Positions 18,613 to 53,116 of a DNA stretch of 64,000 nucleotides are shown in pieces. The notes beneath the pieces are model-generated. The model was not told where the DNA came from. It searched no databases and saw only the letters and a list, made by a program, of their open reading frames with translations. A program made the translations under genes and the position numbers. The number at the start of each line of letters is the position of its first letter. Position 1 is the stretch's first letter. Source of the stretch: Gekko japonicus (Eukaryota); the NCBI RefSeq assembly GCF_001447785.1, contig NW_015167538.1, positions 62,001 through 126,000 on the forward strand, given 5' to 3'.

Positions 18613-19045
18613 CAACATATATGTCTACGGGACAGGGAAAAATCAATAAGATTTAAAGTGAGAATTTGGGCACAGTTTTTACATCTTAAAAAAACAACAG
18701 AGAAAAGTGATTTTTGAATATGACAGGCATGGAGGGGGACCCCAAATAAATAGTCTAACAGAGAATACCTGTTATTCAGTGCCTTTACACTTCACTCACA
18801 GAGAGGAATGTGAACAGTCACCTTGGGAGCCCCTGTGCCGATTGATGCTCACTCAGCAGTCACAAGAGTAATAATTTAAAGAGGCAACACATATATTTTA
18901 AAGACTCTCAGAAACAATCCTGCCAAACAGCCCAGGCAGGCAGCTGCCGGCGAAAGAAAAGCCTTCGACATTTAGTTACCCATGTGCCCTGAAAGACTGT
19001 TGCGATCTGGAAGCCAACCCCGGGAGAGAATAAAGCACCTCTTAC

Positions 19046-19282
19046 CTGCAGAAGCTTCCCTTCTGCTGGGGTCACGTCCGCCACGCTGGCGAAGACTCCT
19101 TCCAGCATGAGGGGCTCCAGCTTGAAAGGGACCACCCGAATTATTGCCTTCTGGGCCAGCGATCGGTCGGCTTCCACGGCGGCCGCCAGGGCCAGTCCAG
19201 AGTAGCCCAGTCGTACCTGCAGCGTAGCCATAAGCAGCCAAGGCCAGAGGACTGCCAACTGTAGCTGGGGGCCAACACTCAT
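19046..19282 (-). CDS. RNF43: RNF43 first coding exon (signal peptide and start of PA domain); the remaining exons lie beyond position 1
   Basis: ATG at 19282 gives [79 protein letters not shown], closely matching the recalled RNF43 N-terminus. Ends at CAG|GTAAGA (phase 0, 79 codons). Syntenic with HSF5 and MTMR4. Confidence 0.96.
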
Positions 19283-22148
19283 GCTCCCAGCTGCAGCAGT
19301 GCGCTCCGGCCACACATACTGCTCAGGAATGCGTCCTCACCCCGACAGCAGGTTCCAACACAAGTCAAAAGGGCTGAAGATTAAAGCCCTCCTTGGGCCG
19401 ATGAGAAGCAGGGCAGAGTCACCTGGATTGCCTTCCTCCAGGTTCTCCTCGCTTCCTCTCGCTGTTTGTTTGCGCCACGTGCAAACCTCAAGAATCAGAA
19501 GCCACACCAGATTAGGTCCTTCTCCTCCTCCAGATGAATTCAGACATTGTTAGTGGAACGAAGGGGGCACGGACAGCATATGGGCCTAAAAGCTTTTCAG
19601 TCCTTCTGGGAAGAGCGCCAGAGCTGTTCAGAGGGAGACAGTTCCCCATGGAAGACAAACTCTGTTTTCCCCAATCCACTCCAGTGTTTGTATCCTAGCA
19701 GGGTCTGTCCCCGGATATCAGGCGGCCTTTCTGATGTCCGATCAGTGAGCTGTTGTTCCCATTTATCCCTCAAAGCAGGAGTTTTTTTGGGTAATGCGAA
19801 CTAATTTCTTTCTTTCCTCTATTGAATCCACATACCAAAATCCATGGCGAGTGAGAAGAGAGTCCCATTCAGTAATTATCACAACCAACCAGTTTTTAGT
19901 TTTTTAAAAAATCAGACAATAGTCTTCGGATTAAAAACAAAATTCTGCCCACCTCAAATGCCAATATTACACTCACCTGGTTGCAGACGTGAAAATATAT
20001 TTTCTAGCCTGGAATTTTCCATCCATGTGTCATTTTAATACAACTCGTAACTCCCAAAATTCATTAAACTAACAAGACGTTCTTTTTAAAAAAATTTCTC
20101 TGAAGTTAAAAAGACCCAAACAGGAAAAACAACTACAGATGTACACCTGTGTGTGTCATTCCATTCCTGGGCAAAACAATGGAACTCATATCTCTGTTTT
20201 TAGAGGCACATTACTAAAAATGTAAATGAAGGGTATCCCAATCATCAAACATAAAATATGTTTCACGAAGGATTTCCGTAACCATAGAAAAATCACCACC
20301 AGTTATCGGCTGAAGGGGTTGTTCGATCAAGGAAGAAAAAAGATAATTTTCAAAGCTACAGTTGATAGATTGACCGCAAGAAGCCGCAGGGGCTAGGTTA
20401 ACAGCTGGACATTTCCCTGCAAAGGCTAACTAAAAAACTTGTTCAGTAATCAATCAAAATATGGGCTGAGTCTTACCTATGGGTTACTGGGGGAAGGGGA
20501 GAGACTCACAGAAACCCCCTGTACAGGTAAATGTGAAATCCCACAGTCTAAATCGGGGGAAATGTACTCCAGACTGAAAGCTTGTGGGCCAGGCGTGGCT
20601 GAAATGTAGTTTCCCCAAGCAACCTAGAAAGGCTTGCTAGGAATCCAGGAGCTTAGCTGAGGGCTCCTTTCGAGTTGAAGCAGAACGCTCTCCCTTTTTC
20701 CCAGCAAAGACAAGCGGCAAGCCATCTAAACAGGCAGTGGGAGAGAAGTTGTTTGAAAACCGCAGATCTCCAGCAGCGGCAGCAGCAGCAAACTCAGAAG
20801 CAAGCCTTGGAAGCCTGCTTCAACAGGGAATGTAACCGTCCTTCAGTGACCAGGGTGCTGAAGTGGCCTTGGAAGGTTCTGCAGATGCCGTGGAAGAGCT
20901 TTCTTTCCAGAAAGGAAGCCAAAAAAATAAAACAAACACGCTCTCTAAAACCTGGGAGTAGTGGACGCTTGTGCTCTCTGCCTCCCTCCCCTGGGACTGC
21001 AAGCTCTTTCTACCTGCTGACAAAAGTGAGGGTGGAGCTGCCCAAGGCAACCACCCCACCCCCTCAGTCTGGTTCTCAGAGCTCCTAGTCTCCCTCTCCT
21101 GAGCCACGGCTAAACTGCATTTAAGCACAGCCCTCACTTAACTTCTTCTGTCTCAGATGCAAATCAGGATCCCGCATGGATCCTGAAAAACAATGGGGCA
21201 GAACGCAGTGAGGGATGGAAATGAAAAGCTACAGAGAGCTGAAGGGGGGAAAAAAGGAAACCAAAGATCGCAATCTTGGCCTTTGTCCCAGGCTGGCGGT
21301 GGCACTTTAAGTGGCACTGAGCCAGTGTCTAAAAGTAACTTCCCCGCTGGAGCAGCGACTGATTCACTGCTGTGTTATGTCTTGGGCTGTGGGAAGGACA
21401 ATGCGCCTCCATGGCTTGACTTCAACTCTTGCTCCTTTAGTTTTAGGAGGGCCCCCCCCCCCAGTCATTTCAAGAAAGATTTCAGGTCAGGCTGATGTCA
21501 GAGACCTGGAATTCAGCTATCAATCCTCATCTGACATCACTTAGGTGAGTAACGCTCTCAGGTCAGACTTCAGAGAGCAAGACTGCAAACTGAAGTCGCA
21601 ACTTGGCATGTGGTGGATCGATAATATATGTAGCCCATGCCTTATGCGTGTTTGGAAGTAAACCCCACTCATTTCGATGGGTTTACTCCCAAGTAAGTGT
21701 GCTCATGACTGCACCTCAGAGCCTTAAACAGTGCGTTCTGTGATGTACAGAAGCTCTATGACAACATCCCAATATTCCAGTATAATTCAGGTTTTTGGAG
21801 GATTGCTTCATCTAGGATAACAGAAGGAACTTGCCATCAAAAACTTGCTAAGTGCCAAACATTCAGCCATCTCCCTTGCACCATGTCAGCGTGTCAGTTA
21901 CAGATTTGTTAGCTATAAAGGCTCTTTCATTATACCCACTGTAACAGAAACTTAGTGCATCTTATAAGACATTTTAACACATTTTCTATGTCACTTAACA
22001 CCTTCTTTGCCGGAGGAGGAAATATCAAACAACACACAACATTCACCATTTCACTTCAGCAGAACCGCACTCTGTGTAAATGAAACGGGTCCCTCTAGCC
22101 TTGGGATTAATAAATGAGACAAACAATGTGCTTGGATGGAGCAGTCTC

Positions 22149-33626: not shown

Positions 33627-34935
33627 CTGCACAAAGAAACAGAGGGAAGGGAGGAAAGAGATTCAGTAGGCTATGAAATGCAAGGCCAGGGGCATACAAT
33701 CAGCACAGTCCCACCACTGATTCTAAGCACTGTGGCCTGAAACACAGTGACTACATTTTATAGCAAGCAATCCTAAAAATATAACTCTAGATGTGGGCTG
33801 TGAAGGGAAAATTACCCCCTTTGAGTCAGCAAGCACATTCTCCCAAGCTTATGGCCCTGGTCAGGATGTCCTTAATTGCCAGCCCGCTCGTGGTTTTGGC
33901 ATCAGATCACCCCCAAGATATAACCACAGAGCTAAGAAAAGTCTCTAGTGGCACACAGCCTGGAACTCCAGTTCAGAATCCAAAGATGCCATTTGACTGC
34001 AAGATCTGTAGATATACAAAGGAGATTCACTCTACCCTATACTTATGGGGCAAGCCCTCAGGAATCACCATTCAATGGGCCATGTTCAAATTGATACCAG
34101 AAGTACCCTGTCAGCCAGGGTTTAGGGAACTATTGGATCAGTGTGCTGTGGATGGAGCATACCACACAAGAGGGATGGCATCCCAAGAGCAAAGGGTCTA
34201 TTCACACAGATAATTTCTGTGCAGGGAAACTGCTCAGCTTATGCCAAGCAGGACAAGCTATTTTGCCACATTTGCTGGATTCCTGTCAAGGCTCCACAGA
34301 GCAAAACAGACATGTCTGCATTTATCATACAATACGCATGACGGTTTCCCACATGGATGTGACCTTTTGTGTATGAAAATCATCTTATACAGAGTCCCAA
34401 GTAAAGGTTGTTGCTAGAGAAGACAGCTGGCCAAGGCAAACACACGACTCTCCTACAGTGGGGACAGCCTTTATCTCCCTGGTTTCAGGGCCAGCTCCAA
34501 CAGGCATCATGGACATTTCTACCTTGGCTCCCTAACCACACACAAACAAAAACTGGAGGGAATATGCTTGGGGAATGGTTTACCAAGTGACCGTGCAGGA
34601 ATGTGTTGTGGACCTGTCCTAGTGTTCCTACCCATTTTCCTTTTTGTGTGACTCTCCTGGTGTTAACTGGCATGTGTCTTCCTTACATACAGGCACTTCT
34701 TTCTCTCAGGATTGTGGACTGTGTTTTGGAAGCTGGGCAGGGCTATTTTTGGGCAGGAACCGGAGTTCCGGCTGGCTTCCAAGTTGGCCACGCCCAGCAG
34801 GAACTCATTAGCATAATAGGCCACACCCAACATCAGAAACTCATTAGGATTGGCTACATTAGGGGTGTGTGGCCTACCATGCAAAGGAGTTCCTGCTACA
34901 AAAAAGCCCTGGGTTTTGACAACAAACAAGGTAAA

Positions 34936-36441
34936 TATTTATTTATTTATTTATTTATTTTTGGGACTTATATCCCGCCCTACACATTGTGTCTCAGGGC
35001 GGCTAACAATAGGGTATATATATATATATAAAAATTTGGCTTCCGGTCTGGCTCCCGCGAATGGCGGACGCATCCTTGGGTCGCTCCCGAGGGGCGTCTC
35101 GCCCGCCCGCGGTGGAGGAGGGAATCCGCACGAGCGGAGACCCGAACGAGCACCTCAGGATGTGAGGAGCTCGGATCCGGGGCGCTTTAGGGCGCTCGAG
35201 GGGGGGGTCTCTCTCTCAGCCGAGAGGTTGGAGACGAGGCTCCCGCCATGCCCTGCCCCTTTGGACCTTGCTGCGTGAGCGATCCCGTTTTTACGGGGTT
35301 TAGCGGGGCCACCGGACGTCACCGAGTGATAAAGCGACCATCCGAAAAAGTTGAAAAAGAAAAGATCGGCTTAACTGTGAGTTGTCAAAATGCAAAGAAA
35401 AAGATCTAAAACCGCTCCCCCCCCACCCAGCGAAAAAGGCGAGGAGGTTAACCCTCTAACTGCATAAGCGAAAAAGAAAAGGAGGGGGGGAATGGACTGA
35501 GCGAACAGCGGTGTTTTCCCTTGATGTATTTGAATTAAAGCGAGAAAAAGTTTTGTCTCTCTGGAGCACACTTTAAGAACTTTCTAAAAGTAAACAAAAA
35601 AGAAAAGATGTCGGAGCTGGGCAAAAACGAGCGGAGGAAGGGAGGGACTTCCGTCTGGGCGTTTGCTTGTGTGTGAGAGCCGGCTGTTTAGTGTTTTGGA
35701 CTGTTTATGGCTGTGAATCCGACGGGAGTTTTGTAAAACGGAAAAGTTTGAACTGTGACAGCGAGGAGTGCCTGGCAAGCGCTTATATACGTCAACAGTT
35801 TTGAGAAGGACCCAATAGAGAGTTTGGGAGCGGAAATAAAAGCGAAATTAAATTAATACCATTCTCAAAGCTGGGGACCTCCAAGGCATGAAAGGAAGAG
35901 GATTTATAATGCATGAACTGAGTGTGTTAACAGCAACCCGAAGGAGAATTTAACAAGCCGGAAGTAGAAGGCAACAGAGGAAACCCCTCCTTGTCAGCGA
36001 GTAAAAGTGCCCAACACGCAAAGAAGCGCAAAGAAGCGGTTTTGACTGTATCCAGAAGAGATATTCTTTTTTTTTATTAACAGAACTCAAGGGAACATTA
36101 CTAATATACTAACAGAGAATCACATGAGACCGGACTAAGAAAAGAAGTTTGACAACACACAGAAGAAGCCCAAGAAGATTAATTGGACATTACTAACAGT
36201 TTAATTTACCAGTTTATATATCACTCAGCTTTCTCTTTCTCCCACTGTCTACCTTTCCCTTTTTTCTTTTAAGCGAAATACCTCCCCTTTTTAGGGGAGC
36301 TAATAAAATCTTTATATATATAAAAAAAACAATAGGGTATAAAAATTTAAAACAGTAAGACAATGTTACGTACATGATAAAAATGGTGCTACAATAGTTT
36401 ACATAAAAATAACCAAGATGCGCAACAATTCACATTGGCGG
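34936..36441 (-). mobile_element. L2-type LINE 3' end, split by an inner insertion
   Basis: (TTTA)n followed by TATATCCCGCCC...CTCAGGGCGGCTAACA, the reverse complement of the squamate L2-type tail; resumes at 36349. Confidence 0.7.
35038..36327 (+). mobile_element. ORF-less L1-like retroelement (5'UTR promoter, 3' tail, poly-A) with TSD
   Basis: Starts GGCTTCCGG...AATGGCGG; CpG-rich 5' end; pyrimidine-rich 3' end with a hairpin, AATAAA at 36302 and an A tail; flanked by AACAATAGGGTATAAAAATTT duplicates. Confidence 0.7.
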
Positions 36442-38780
36442 CAGAATAAGAAGCAAAAGGTGGGTGGTAACATGGGGGTGTGGCCTAATATGCCAATGAG
36501 CTGTGATGTCAGGGGTGTGGCCTAATATGCCAATGAGTTTCTGCTGTTGGATGTGGCCTATTATGCTAATGAGTTCCTGCTGGGCTTTTTCTACAAAAAA
36601 GCCCTGAAGCTGGGTAACTACAAAACAGCACTGACTTTTGCATTTTCCCTTGTGAACAGTCCACAAATGGGTGAGTGCAGAAGCGAAAACTTTAAAATCT
36701 CACATGCTGCATTTATTCTAGTTGGATTGTAAGCCTGTCAGCAAGGCCTGTCCCTTTTAATTATTTTTGTGCAGTGCTGTTGTAGATGCTTTCCAGTAAA
36801 TAAGTATTAACGATTATTATTGGGACAGTGAGGAGTTGACCAGAAGGAACATGAGCCAATGGGTGAGATGAGAAATCTGTTTATCCCAAGTTGTTTTCTA
36901 TGAGATATTGCAGTTGAATGCTTCTTTAAAGATGCATTACACTTTTGCTTAGAAAAACCCAGCACCTATCAGATAAAACTGGTGTCTGGGTGAAGGTATA
37001 AAATGCAAACAGGGGCCACTGGTCTGCAGTATGTCATGAAGAATAGCATTGGCACAGGTATACCGAAAATGACAGAGAAGACAGTGTATTCAGGGGCACT
37101 GCAAATTTCAACTGGTTTAACTGTCTATTCCTCTCCAAAAGAACCTTGTGAATTACTATTCTGAGTGAGGAGTTCCAATTCTTCACAAAACTACAATTCC
37201 CAGTGTTCTTTGAGAAACTGAAGGCAGTTTAAACAGTTTGAAAAGGCACGGGATAGAAATGTGTTCTGCAAAATGATTGGACAGCATCAAGAGGTGGCGA
37301 CACTAGGCTGATAGCTGACTTGCTAGCAAGTCAGAAATGGAGGGGTGGGAACCTGTTAATAGAGGTGAGTCCTGCCTCATTTCCACATCAGAGACATGAT
37401 GTAAGAGTGGGAGGAGACTCTTAGCCAAGATGCTGCTGTGCTTAAGCACAGGGAACAGGAGGTGAAATGGAGCACTCTACTACTTTGAGAAGCTGCCCCT
37501 GGGATATACAATGTCCTTATAAACAGCCTTTAGCTTTGCTTGTTGTATGGCATGTGCTTAAAATCCCTGAGGAAGATGGTTATTCTGGTTTACTTTGGAG
37601 GGAAAATGTATGTTCACATATATGATAACTGAAAGCATGCCTTACTTCTGAATATATTTATTTGTAAAAAGATTCTACTGATTTCAGTACAATGTTTTCA
37701 GACCACAGAAACTGGGGATGGAGACTGCAGGTGACAGTTATGTGAATATGGGGTGTCAGGTGCTTTCTCCAAAGTTGCTTAAAAAGATGTAATGTATGGC
37801 AACAGTACAACTTAATTTCAGTGCCTGAACTCAGCAATGGAACAAGGGGAGGAGAGGAGCCAGTGCAGAGCGAGATGCCAGGAAACCTACACATCTTAAA
37901 GGAGGAACACAAAAGACCTATCTAAAAAGGGACAATGCAAACTTGCATTGTTGTATGGTCCCTCTGAACTGTGCTGTAATCACTCCGAGTTTGTTCTACT
38001 GATAAAAGATGTTCATTCTAACCTGCAATGTATTAACTAGTGGGAAAATGCATTCATAAAAGAAAGGAACTGGCAATGAAATGTATCCTGTACATGTTAA
38101 GGAGGCATGTGTATGCAACTATGGCCCCAGTGTTCAGCTCTGATTTCATTGGTCCAATGATATGCAGTAGGTCCCTGGTTCAATCACTGTTTGTCAGAAC
38201 AAACAAGGATGAGCTAGATGAGTTTAGGAAGACAGGAAAACTGCTTAGTGACAGAGCACCTGCTTGTATATAGACAATCCCTGGCATCTTCCATTTAAAA
38301 TGATTTCAAAAAGGATGGGAAAGCACTCTGTGTACCTAAGATTTCTGAAAGCCAGTGTCATTCAGAAGATGATACTGAGCTCAATAAACTAGCAGTCTGA
38401 GTCAGAAGGCAGCTTCCTTTATATATTCCCAACTCAGAGGGCCACTGCCACTTGTAGTATGCAGCACCGGGCTGGATAAACCAATAACCTGAACAGTTTC
38501 CTATGTTTGCTGATTCAACTGCCATTGGACAATTGAATCATTAACTCTGTTTTGCTCTTTACTACTGGTAATTAATCTCTTCTTAGGGATAGTATTGGGA
38601 ACTAATGCAGTATAGTGGTTAAGACTGTAGAGTGGACTTGGAGCAGGGAGACTGGAGTTTAAAGGCACAGAGAAGCTGAGGCAACCTCTCTTGCTCAGCC
38701 CAACCTACCTCTCAGGCACGCTGTGAAGATTAAATGTAAGGGAAAGGAGACACATGTATGCTACCTTGAACTTTTTGGAG

Positions 38781-38850
38781 GTATCTGAAGAAGTGAGCAG
38801 TGACTCATGAGATCTCATACCTTGCCACATATTTTTGTTAGTCTTTAACT
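38781..38850 (+). mobile_element. Penelope-like repeat remnant with a mutated hammerhead core
   Basis: GTATCTGAAGAAGTGAGCAGTGACTCATGAGATCTCATAC...TTGTTAGTCTTTA. Confidence 0.7.
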
Positions 38851-39241
38851 ACCCATCTTGACCTATCTTTTTGGAGGAAGGTGACAGATGGGACACATAT
38901 GATAAGATTTTTGACCCTTCTGGGTAACCTCTGCCCTCAGTTGCAGGAGGCACAAGTGGGTGGACAAGCAGCTTCAGTAGCTTTGGTTCCTGAGCAGCAT
39001 GTCACTCAGCATGTCAAAAGATCTCATTTGGGGGGAATACTGCTGGAGAACTCCCTGCAAGTCGAAAAGCAGCAGAGCAAGCAAAAAGGGGGCCGGGATC
39101 GGAGCCCTTCTGCCTTGCACGGAGCCTTCTTTGTGTGTGCGTGTTATGTTAAGGTTGCCTTCGGCTGCCTGCAGGCCGTCCTACCAGGCTCTCTGCCCAT
39201 GCTCAAAGGCGCCAACCCAGCCGGCTCTTGACGCCTCTCAC

Positions 39242-51316: not shown

Positions 51317-51448
51317 GGCACATGTGTGTATGGAGATGGGCTGATAAGTCCTTTGGTCCTTTTAATCTATGATTCTAGGACTGACTGCCTTCGCTAAGCA
51401 AAACCCGGGGGGGGGGGGGGGGGCCCCCGGGGGGGGGCCTTCACTTAC

Positions 51449-52667
51449 GAAGTCGTCTTCATAGTCCATCGGTGGTTCAGCCGGAGGTGCGTAGCAATGG
51501 CGGATGTCCAGTCGCAGCTGCAACTCTCGCACCTGCCTGCGCAGCTGCTCCACCTCCTGCTTGTAGGTGGCTTCGATCTGCCGTAGCCGGTGCTGGATCA
51601 CATCCGTGGGGAAGGGGAGCCCGTCGTCGTCTAGGTAGAGGGGAGGCACTGGGGAAGGGCTGTTGGGAGGTGCGGGCTTGGTGCCGAGCGCCTGCTTCAA
51701 ATGGCAGGGGAGCCACAGCCTGCTGGATTTTGCGGCGAGGCCTGTGCAGTGTGTGCCAGAATGGCCTGAGCAGGCTGGGGGCTTTGCACCTTCTTTCACC
51801 GGCCACTGGCCACTGAGACACAGTCCAGACGTCCAGAAGGGCCTGCCAATCAGCCTCTTGTTACAGCAGCCGTAGGAGAAGAGCCGCCGAGGACCCGCGT
51901 CACCCCCAGGAAGTGAAGTCCCCATCCCCTGAAAACTGTCCCAGTTGGCTCCTAGAAGAGAGAATTCGCTGGTCTGGCTCTGCGAGATTCCTTTTCGCCA
52001 CCACTCCGGAGGAGTTTTCCCCATCTGGCTACCTTCTTCTCCATGCCTGGCACAGCTGCTTTTGCCGTCCTCCTCATTTTGGTACCCTGGAGCATCCTGT
52101 TTCGGGACGCTAGGGACTGGCGGGTTCCAAATGGGAGTACATGCTGAAGGCTGGAGGGAAGGTTCCGCCAAGTCCCAAGCACCATTGGATTCCAAGCCAA
52201 GGCCTTTCACATTGTTGCAGGGAGACGGCTCCGACTCCTCCTCTGTTCTGACCAAATCCTTCGAGAGTTTCTTTCGCCCCAAAGCACTTTGTGCTGGGCA
52301 GATGCCTTCTGCCACTGCTGGACTAGCTTCATTAACTGTTACCACCTCTGGAAAGATGCAGTTTGATTTCTGCGTCTCCCCATTCACCTGCAGCGTATGT
52401 GGCTGATCGATTCTGTCACTGTTGGAGCTGCAAGTCTCAGCTGGCTGTGGGGGATGGAGTTCCTGCTGCTCAGGCACCGGAGATGGCTCCTCTCTTGCGC
52501 TCTCGTTGCCCGCCGCTGCCTCCTCAGCATTAGGATGCCTGGGCTCCAATCCTACCCTGACATCTTGACAGTGGTTGTTAAGATTTGGATCACTCGATGT
52601 GCGGGTCAGCAGGCTGCCAGGATCACAGGCTGAGAGCAGGTCATCCATGGATCTTGTCTTTGGTAAC
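51449..52667 (-). CDS. MTMR4: MTMR4 large exon (linker, PPxY motif PPLY at 51635-51646, coiled coil)
   Basis: TTTTAG|G ... LPKTRSMDDLLSACD...RTSSDPNLNNHCQ...SPVPPLYLDDDGLPFPTDVIQHRLRQIEATYKQEVEQLRRQVRELQ...PPMDYEDDF|GTAAGT; 1219 nt. Confidence 0.95.
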
Positions 52668-53116
52668 CTAAAACCACAAGACATAGTTGAGGAGGTATCA
52701 CAGACTGGGCACTTACTCCCTAAGGAGGTCCTCACAGAGCCGAAACTGGGTGGCCACCATCACCCTCTAGATGCAGCCCTGCTAACTGGCTCCTGGTCTC
52801 AAAATAAATCTTCACAGCTGAAACAGCAGAACAGAACACAGCCTGACATGGCTGTGAAAGTCTAATATCACCTAGAGACCTCTTTCCCAGATGCAAATGC
52901 TCAGTACACCTGCAATTAAGGCCATGTGCCTCAAGATGAACAGGAAAAGCTCAGTATTACTGGAGAGGCCCTCCAGTCCATCTAATGTCATTTCAAAATG
53001 TGCATAACAAAGCCCCTTGTCCAAAACAAACCCAGCAGGCATCATGTGGCGGAGTGGGAAATCGAACTCCAGTTAGAATCTGCCTTAACCACTACACTGG
53101 CTTCTCAGTATCTCAG

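Follow-up and report, generated by a model that had tools for sequence, protein, structure and literature searches.

The HAL1 elements of mammals are non-autonomous derivatives of L1 that have kept the 5′-UTR and contain no ORF2, as outlined in passages of four papers (PMC5753468, PMC5786205, PMC8535693, PMC11260458). Bipartite non-autonomous LINEs are divided, in the section of PMC5786205 that deals with them, into ORF1-present elements, i.e. HAL1, HeT-A, and Ag-Sponge, and ORF-absent elements. The latter are reported there only from RTE, Ingi, Vingi, and R2, and the former are ruled out as sources of SINEs by their need for ORF1p. A passage of PMC6740152 adds CR1 as a source and calls ORF-absent bipartite elements rare; a passage of PMC7245038 describes them as common for RTE. 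A HAL1-like reporter required functional ORF1p, according to an excerpt of PMC11260458. The abstract of PMC2848041 describes Sadhu, a non-coding retroposon of Arabidopsis. For lizards, GACTTCCGGTG-N8-ATGGCG is given as the 5′ consensus of L1 clade 1 in a passage of PMC5381506. Lastly, an excerpt of PMC5135761 mentions 3′ stem-loops that have been proposed as recognition signals of L1, as well as conserved stem-loops in the 5′-UTR of human L1.

The locus that we compared with these systems lies in a window of 64,000 nt, i.e. the whole stretch of DNA that was analysed (Gekko japonicus, contig NW_015167538.1, positions 62,001 to 126,000), and all coordinates count from its first base. A preliminary description, based on the letters of the window, had read there an insert between target site duplications (TSDs), with a start motif, a GTGAGT and an AG as ends of a possible intron, a hairpin, and an AATAAA. 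All of these landmarks are present and are included in the following list of features.

35038..36327, plus strand: the whole element, ~1.3 kb (1290 nt), within intron 1 of HSF5
35005..35037, plus strand: left copy of the TSD, 33 nt with six extra TA units, read directly
36328..36348, plus strand: right copy of the TSD, 21 nt, read directly
35038..35066, plus strand: 5′ terminus GGCTTCCGGT-N13-ATGGCG, read directly and backed by genome matches to a relaxed motif; likely a Pol II initiation site with putative promoter activity
35038..35320, plus strand: conserved 5′ domain with a predicted RNA fold (shuffles, covariation, held-out matches)
35038..35607, plus strand: 5′-UTR from an ORF1-only parent (profile of 19 parent copies against element positions 1-650, E 2e-71)
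35377..35382, plus strand: donor-like GTGAGT motif, conserved and never seen spliced
35608..35830, plus strand: decayed remnant of the first ~75 ORF1 codons, start codon retained, frame closed after 22 codons
35830..35831, plus strand: junction of the founding deletion, with ~510 nt of ORF1 gone (roughly codons 76-247)
35831..36020 (end approximate), plus strand: decayed remnant of the ORF1 C-terminus (profile positions 1281-1795 against element positions 767-1270, E 6e-29)
36021..36307, plus strand: 3′-UTR from the parent, its last ~175 nt kept across lineages
36083, plus strand: AG at the end of the proposed intron, read directly
36282..36299, plus strand: terminal 7-bp hairpin, with pairing in 54 distinct ends
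36302..36327, plus strand: AATAAA (36302-36307) and A-rich tail, read directly; sister copies end alike
33628..39241 (ends approximate), minus strand: HSF5 intron 1, splice sites read, with the element antisense inside

The first 300 nt of the element have a GC content of 67% and contain 34 CpG at an observed/expected ratio of 1.01, in agreement with the CpG-rich start of ~300 bp noted earlier. No sense frame within the element exceeds 75 codons from stop to stop, so that the reported lack of a long sense ORF also holds. A tRNA search of the element found none, and an Rfam search returned only a chance match on the opposite strand (E 0.39). The element thus has no tRNA-, 7SL-, or 5S-derived head of the kind that defines a Pol III SINE, and it does not have the ORF1 and the ORF2 with endonuclease and reverse transcriptase that characterize an autonomous L1. 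Internal T runs argue against Pol III transcription, and the interior contains 11 runs of at least four T. Together with the missing head, they make Pol II the likely polymerase, as had been proposed.

A genome search with the element (40 candidates scored, 42 rows returned) yielded 35 rows that span at least 1277 of the 1290 nt with 92-100% identity, the own locus included. The exact 30-mer of the 5′ end occurs 183 times in the genome and an exact 3′ motif 815 times, whereas the reversed controls do not occur at all; a relaxed version of the 5′ terminus has 2151 matches. From raw DNA reads, we estimated ~250 copy-equivalents with at least 95% identity. Individual target duplications of 10-21 nt (median 17) were found in 35 of the 40 copies with both ends readable, compared with 2 of 1560 mismatched flank pairs used as a control, and 30 of the 35 start with A. 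Elements mobilised by L1 have duplications of 7-20 nt at A-rich sites and an A-tail, and the present family shows both. A solo LTR, as which the element might be taken at first sight, is ruled out by the A-tails and the 10-21-nt duplications.

The locus at 35038 differs from its own subfamily consensus at five positions in 1275 nt, indicating that this copy is very recent. The copies fall into several young branches with mean pairwise identities of 98.6% (9 copies), 99.2% (21 copies), and 98.1% (7 copies), and the closest pairs inside the branches are 99.6-99.8% identical, so that the lineage is divided into several recently active branches. The element is therefore a member of a young, multi-copy, non-coding family of L1-clade retroposons. 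In this respect, the preliminary description, which had postulated a young family of ~1.3 kb with individual duplications and L1-type insertion, turned out to be correct.

A related family of 1.79 kb in this genome came to light through an element at an L1 ORF1 locus whose 5′ landmarks are identical and whose frame is open from the homologous ATG. Its members have a 5′-UTR of ~550 nt, an ORF1 of 320 codons, and a 3′-UTR of ~280 nt, and they end in a hairpin and an A-tail. The protein encoded by its ORF1 has 128 matches in the genome, and we examined 50 of these loci, i.e. the 30 best and 20 chosen lower down. Forty-six continue straight into the 3′-UTR, the hairpin, and the A-tail, four stop inside the 3′-UTR, and none of the 50 shows an ORF2. 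In the PDB, the sole matches were human LINE-1 ORF1p, with an E value of ~0.1 for the protein alone and of 9e-12 for a joint profile with the L1 ORF1s of this genome. Pfam did not recognise the protein, and a protein search returned two unnamed relatives. An ORF of at least 300 codons has been kept in 20 of 45 full-length copies, and dN/dS is 0.15 over 167 deep pairs; the parental ORF1 was thus under purifying selection. By the definition given in a passage of PMC5753468, this family is of the HAL1 type.

The profile of 19 parent copies aligns with the gene-less family in two blocks, i.e. 1-780 and 1294-1795 for its least changed lineage (L067) and 1-647 and 1281-1795 for the present element (E 2e-71 and 6e-29, respectively). 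The missing stretch of ~510 nt aligns, in human ORF1p, to the end of the coiled coil, the RRM, and the beginning of the C-terminal domain. The start of the gap is common to 27 of 27 gene-less copies in the tree, which form one clade with successive subfamilies, and the expectation of an identical internal junction was thereby confirmed. The longest unbroken gap in the alignment has 411-412 nt, since the aligner scatters some bases. The homologous ATG is retained in 51 of 52 gene-less copies; the frame that starts from it has 22 codons here and 5-116 codons depending on the lineage (45 copies measured). The ORF1 remnants are full of stops and shifts, and the coding capacity has been lost. As judged from these alignments, one deletion of ~510 nt and decay of ORF1 are shown to have made the gene-less family from an ORF1-only parent. 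Two earlier claims have to be modified accordingly: both ORFs are absent in the sense that nothing can be encoded, yet decayed pieces of ORF1 remain, and the bipartite structure belongs to the L1 clade and has a shared junction, yet its parent is an ORF1-only element of the HAL1 type instead of an autonomous L1.

That the copies are retrocopies of a host lncRNA or repeated one-off deletions of HAL1 could be suspected from several copies with private internal deletions (five examined), which suggest that deletions arise often or are assembly artefacts, and is refuted by the single junction in 27 of 27 copies, their arrangement in one clade with successive subfamilies, their individual duplications, and the lack of any trace of removed introns.

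When 20 diverse 5′ ends were surveyed out of the 2151 matches, further ORF1-only families emerged, as did an ORF-less element of 1.5 kb. This second ORF-less family (L200:143-1640, L253-L272) was full length in 20 of 20 fetched copies, which are ~91% alike, and the longest ORF of its consensus has 52 codons. It shares the predicted 5′ fold and has a different 3′-UTR with its own terminal hairpin, from which we infer that it arose by an independent loss of ORF1. Several other relatives were observed. A candidate for a third ORF-less family (L216:126-1590, 1.47 kb, 13-nt duplication) contains only broken ORF1 remnants. A radiation of ORF1-only families (L201, L202, L203, L206, L207, L217, and L219, each from about base 130 on, L095:3600-5400, and L082:3530-4260) has lengths of 1.8-2.1 kb where complete; members with ends read have a short hairpin just before the A-tail, and the stem sequences differ. 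Two derivatives of SINE size, L205:146-396 (~250 nt) and L110:2512-2737 (~225 nt), consist of the two ends only, have their own duplications, and may be one-offs. In the HAL1 copies L122 and L123, one of which has its own duplication, the 3′ part is replaced in the same way by inverted L1 ORF2 sequence; they possibly represent a chimeric subfamily.

In comparisons of deep gene-less lineages, identity is 84-95% over the first 300 nt and 76-88% over the last 175 nt, whereas the region between 300 and 1100 has an identity of 35-62% with the lineage of the present copy; for the ORF1 remnant, drift has brought the identity between branches down to 35-60%. Conservation is strong over the initial ~300 nt and the final ~175 nt, which shows selection on both ends. 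For the 5′ domain, a fold was predicted that the preliminary description does not mention. It comprises an outer helix, a hairpin H1 (~35063-35103), an inner junction (~35104-35281) that bears two short hairpins and a long, interrupted one, and a hairpin H5 (~35282-35299). The first 303 nt have a folding z value of -5.69, and none of 100 shuffles was equally stable. The consensus structure from 11 gene-less and 10 parent sequences contains 86 pairs, 20 of which show compensatory changes on both sides, and 96% of the cells are paired, compared with 36-48% when the partners were slid.

A structure model of the inner domain gave 15 matches over 29 held-out loci. Thirteen of these were also found by a sequence-only model, and all 13 score more bits with the structure model, which additionally found the other two. 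In the 15 matches, 88.7% of the positions are paired and 37 of 53 pairs are changed on both sides, in an alignment that was fitted to the model. The covariation counts are biased in favour of the structure, since the structure itself came from the alignments or was fitted to them, and since the sequences share ancestry. The difference in folding energy between the sense and the antisense strand is modest (z -5.4 versus -3.0), and one window in the ORF1 remnant likewise folds (z -2.9).

At the 3′ end, the last 188 nt as a whole show no unusual folding (z -0.2). In the terminal hairpin, 98.1% of the cells are paired in 54 distinct ends, a set that left out six copies whose ends did not fit the search expression, and double changes occur at three of seven pairs; a change from T-A to C-G requires at least two events on the tree. 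In the parent, the AATAAA is located 5′ of the hairpin, in the present family 3′ of it, and the hairpin persisted through this move. With support from covariation, we therefore predict RNA folding of both the 5′ domain and the 3′ hairpin.

Would DNA signals be sufficient to explain the two ends? They could be only a promoter and poly(A) signals, with the folds as by-products of GC-rich palindromes, and the RNA would then be taken, as any mRNA could be, via its A-tail. The first 300 nt are indeed a CpG island with an L1-type start motif, and the position of the parental hairpin between AATAAA and tail would fit a role in 3′ processing. On the other hand, the long-range helices of the 5′ domain show double changes (pairs 68-252, 80-239, and 154-225), the slid controls reach less than half or about half of the observed pairing, and the hairpin outlasted the switch of AATAAA from one side to the other. 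We regard this explanation as rather unlikely.

Ends of the L1 type were also analysed for the 5′ fold (L209-L214, first 300 nt past the start motif). The four tested have z values of -4.3 to -6.8, and an alignment of five such ends, including two that continue into ORF1 and ORF2, predicts the same topology with compensatory changes in 26 of 93 pairs. The structure model did not detect the 5′ ends of ORF2-bearing L1s at a significant level (best for L211, E 0.068; none for L214). Homology of the folds in half-L1s and L1s is thus suggested by the common topology and is not firm.

Two further sets of conserved motifs were observed. All five consensuses contain three or four ACTAAY motifs, which we take to resemble branch points or sites of STAR proteins, at conserved distances of about -240, -210, and -120 from the 3′ end; the motifs are located at 36100-36240 of the window and in the 3′-UTRs of parents. 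The sequence AAGTAAACA at 35588-35612, just upstream of the old start codon, is presumably forkhead-like; it has been kept in 45 of 52 gene-less copies and is present in other HAL1 families too.

The preliminary description had also proposed an intron and predicted spliced copies of ~0.58 kb. Of 19 elements or family consensuses, 14 have GTGAGT at a distance of 273-360 nt from their start, with a chance expectation of 0.04-0.14 each and with the 19 not being independent. A search for spliced genomic copies, with a pattern of exon end plus non-G that excludes lineages D and E, gave three candidates, all of them point mutants in unspliced copies. No splice joint was found in 3001 and 2278 reads of two RNA runs; none of the seven joints listed has GT..AG ends, and neither do the private internal deletions of the five copies mentioned above. 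The T-rich acceptor is lineage-specific, and the parent has no AG at that position. The proposed intron is thus a pair of motifs with no sign of splicing in genomic copies or in the two RNA runs. The conservation of GTGAGT, which was never seen spliced, may reflect another role; we can only guess that it might bind U1 without splicing or might pair with the 5′ end, as in the consensus fold.

In three RNA runs, the tissue of which is not on record, reads on the family reach 0.10-0.55 of the DNA level per base, and no pile-up of read starts was seen at the 5′ end of the element. This low level without a 5′ pile-up fits passive read-through as well as the element's own transcription. Run X24 has a strand bias of ~3:1 in the middle of the element, with the strandedness of the library not on record and a bias of ~1.4:1 in a DNA run as well.

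The identification of the host gene was correct. A minus-strand exon 1 peptide is similar to human HSF5 (PDB 8zys, E 6e-11), and the exon 1 donor near 39241 is ~2.9 kb away from the 3′ end of the element, which is antisense to the gene. The preliminary description had suggested that the element could drive RNA antisense to HSF5 in germ cells; between the putative promoter and HSF5 exon 1, there is a poly(A) signal of the element itself. RNA depth is zero at 36694-38745 in three runs, in which HSF5 itself is barely covered. Joints that would represent an empty site (35004/36328 and 35008/36331) occur in DNA contigs with a depth of 183-675; at this depth, they stem from other copies of the host repeat and are uninformative about this locus. 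The unique flanks have a raw coverage of ~1x. The surroundings form a nest at 34739-36611 of the window: a very abundant short element, presumably of hAT type, whose ends are inverted and which has 36-nt repeats, contains a LINE-like 3′ tail (minus strand, ~34936-36441), presumably L2-like, which in turn is interrupted by the present element. HSF5 is flanked by minus-strand frames at 18908-19336 and 51362-52759 without database match, which we assume to resemble RNF43 and MTMR4.

None of 34 ORF2 3′ ends, a sample from a gapped assembly and not a full census, shares the 3′-UTR or the hairpin of the element, so that the L1 partner has to be deduced from the insertion marks only. No autonomous partner was found among 29 and 20 L1 ORF1 loci or among the 20 diverse 5′ ends, and a search for PF13966 is uninformative in this regard, as it returned nothing anywhere. 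A nearly intact L1 exists that has a sister fragment with 98% identity and few close copies, making recent L1 activity plausible. L080:1-5400 is a nearly intact L1 in which the 5′-UTR and ORF1 are duplicated in tandem.

Taken together, the family is a non-coding one that originated from a half-L1 by a deletion of ~510 nt and decay of ORF1, and it is probably moved as unspliced Pol II RNA by L1 ORF2p in trans. Pol II would start at the first base, driven by an internal promoter in the 5′ end. The unspliced, polyadenylated RNA would be captured in trans by the ORF2p of intact L1s, and target-primed reverse transcription would integrate it. As cis signals, the folded head and, at the other end, the hairpin with the A-tail would bring the RNA into the L1 particle without ORF1p from the same RNA, and they would substitute for the advantage that the parent had from ORF1p made in cis; ORF1p could be either borrowed or unneeded. 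The predicted folded head and the tail likely enable the element to borrow all needed proteins from intact LINE-1s. As a guess, retention of the start codon may serve to keep the RNA at ribosomes, the site of ORF2p synthesis. Alternative explanations partly overlap with this reading.

One of them has the same origin and a third tier, i.e. the element would need ORF1p of coding HAL1 relatives in addition to ORF2p of L1. Such a dependence would be in line with the ends shared with the HAL1 parent, the ORF of at least 300 codons in 20 of 45 full-length parent copies, the presence of several further ORF1-only families, and the ORF1p requirement of the HAL1-like reporter (in the excerpt of PMC11260458). 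However, the closest pair among the 45 parent copies is 96.6% alike, compared with 99.6-99.8% in the gene-less branches, so that the parent looks older in this sample, which was seeded from arbitrary copies and from which a younger coding branch may be absent. Overall, the need for HAL1-encoded ORF1p appears improbable.

Far less room is left for direct descent from an autonomous L1 that shares both ends, joined by a 5′ plus 3′ deletion. The 5′ terminus does resemble those of ORF2-bearing L1s here and in the anole, and the sample comprised just 34 ORF2 ends of a gapped assembly. However, 50 of 50 ORF1 relatives examined have no ORF2, and the 3′ half consists of the ORF1 C-terminus and a HAL1 3′-UTR with no ORF2 remnant. 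Furthermore, 20 of the 183 exact 5′ ends were taken with 7 kb downstream: 18 of these arrive at the 3′ end within ~1.4 kb, and none of the 20 runs into coding frames for the element's ORF1 or ORF2. The ORF1s of ORF2-bearing L1s are merely 24-37% identical. Direct descent is thus largely refuted.

The element has several features of HAL1, as described in passages of the four papers cited at the outset: it is L1-derived, as seen from the profile alignment and the similarity of the parental ORF1 to human LINE-1 ORF1p, it is non-autonomous, has a 5′-UTR and no ORF2, and is mobile as one unit that has poly(A) and target duplications. In contrast to HAL1 and to its own parent family, it encodes no ORF1p and still multiplies. 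It also resembles the SIDEs, i.e. Bov-A, RIME, NARTc, RTESINE, the R2 SIDE, and Persaeus, in which, according to passages of PMC5786205, PMC7245038, and PMC6740152, an internal deletion has likewise brought together a 5′ and a 3′ portion of a LINE, and which are non-coding, without a Pol III head, and presumably transcribed by Pol II. One internal deletion joining a 5′ and a 3′ part was found here in all 27 copies, together with the lack of coding capacity and of a small-RNA head. However, the SIDE examples with lengths stated in these passages have ~0.2-0.3 kb and an autonomous partner that shares their ends, whereas the element has 1.3 kb, is of the L1 clade and two steps removed via HAL1, shares its ends with HAL1 instead of any of the 34 ORF2 ends, and has only a short 5′ motif in common with the sampled autonomous L1s. 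On this sample, it is therefore not a SIDE with an end-sharing autonomous partner.

SVA (in an excerpt of PMC11260458) and Sadhu (in the abstract of PMC2848041) are, like the element, non-coding retroposons that exceed SINEs in length and depend in trans on the machinery of L1 or LINEs. An assembly of L1 5′-UTR, ORF1 remnant, and 3′-UTR is found in neither; for Sadhu, the abstract does not state the origin. The composition of SVA is reflected in its name. L1 clade 1 of lizards has a similar start, a pyrimidine-rich 3′-UTR, AATAAA, and poly(A), but is autonomous with two ORFs and has a shorter terminal spacer (N8 versus N13), according to passages of PMC5381506. A word search of that paper gave no HAL1, non-autonomous elements, or hairpins, and its passages contain no folded 5′-UTR domain. 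In the literature found, neither an ORF-less HAL1 derivative nor the present 5′ fold was described; the comparison covered papers, so that an entry in Repbase or Dfam may exist.

In the passages cited above, ORF-free bipartite elements are listed for RTE, Ingi, Vingi, R2, and CR1 only, and here a half-element of the L1 clade has lost ORF1. The gene-less lineage had several recent bursts after this loss, and the second family likewise multiplied. Free drift of the middle has delimited the parts required in the RNA: the 5′-terminal ~300 nt and the 3′-terminal ~175 nt, each of which contains covarying pairs. It thereby becomes a testable question what, apart from poly(A), permits a Pol II RNA lacking ORF1p of its own to recruit L1 ORF2p in trans. 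A tentative generalization, which we regard as possible, would be that half-L1s of this lineage repeatedly become protein-free Pol II retroposons via a hitherto unrecognised RNA fold of ~280 nt in the L1 5′-UTR, which would dock on the L1 machinery like the SRP-derived head of Alu and would share its topology with autonomous L1s. If true, SINE-like parasites would have a further, new route of origin, and L1 would have a new cis element. Irrespective of this generalization, the element works like a bipartite non-autonomous LINE and is neither a HAL1 nor a Pol III SINE.
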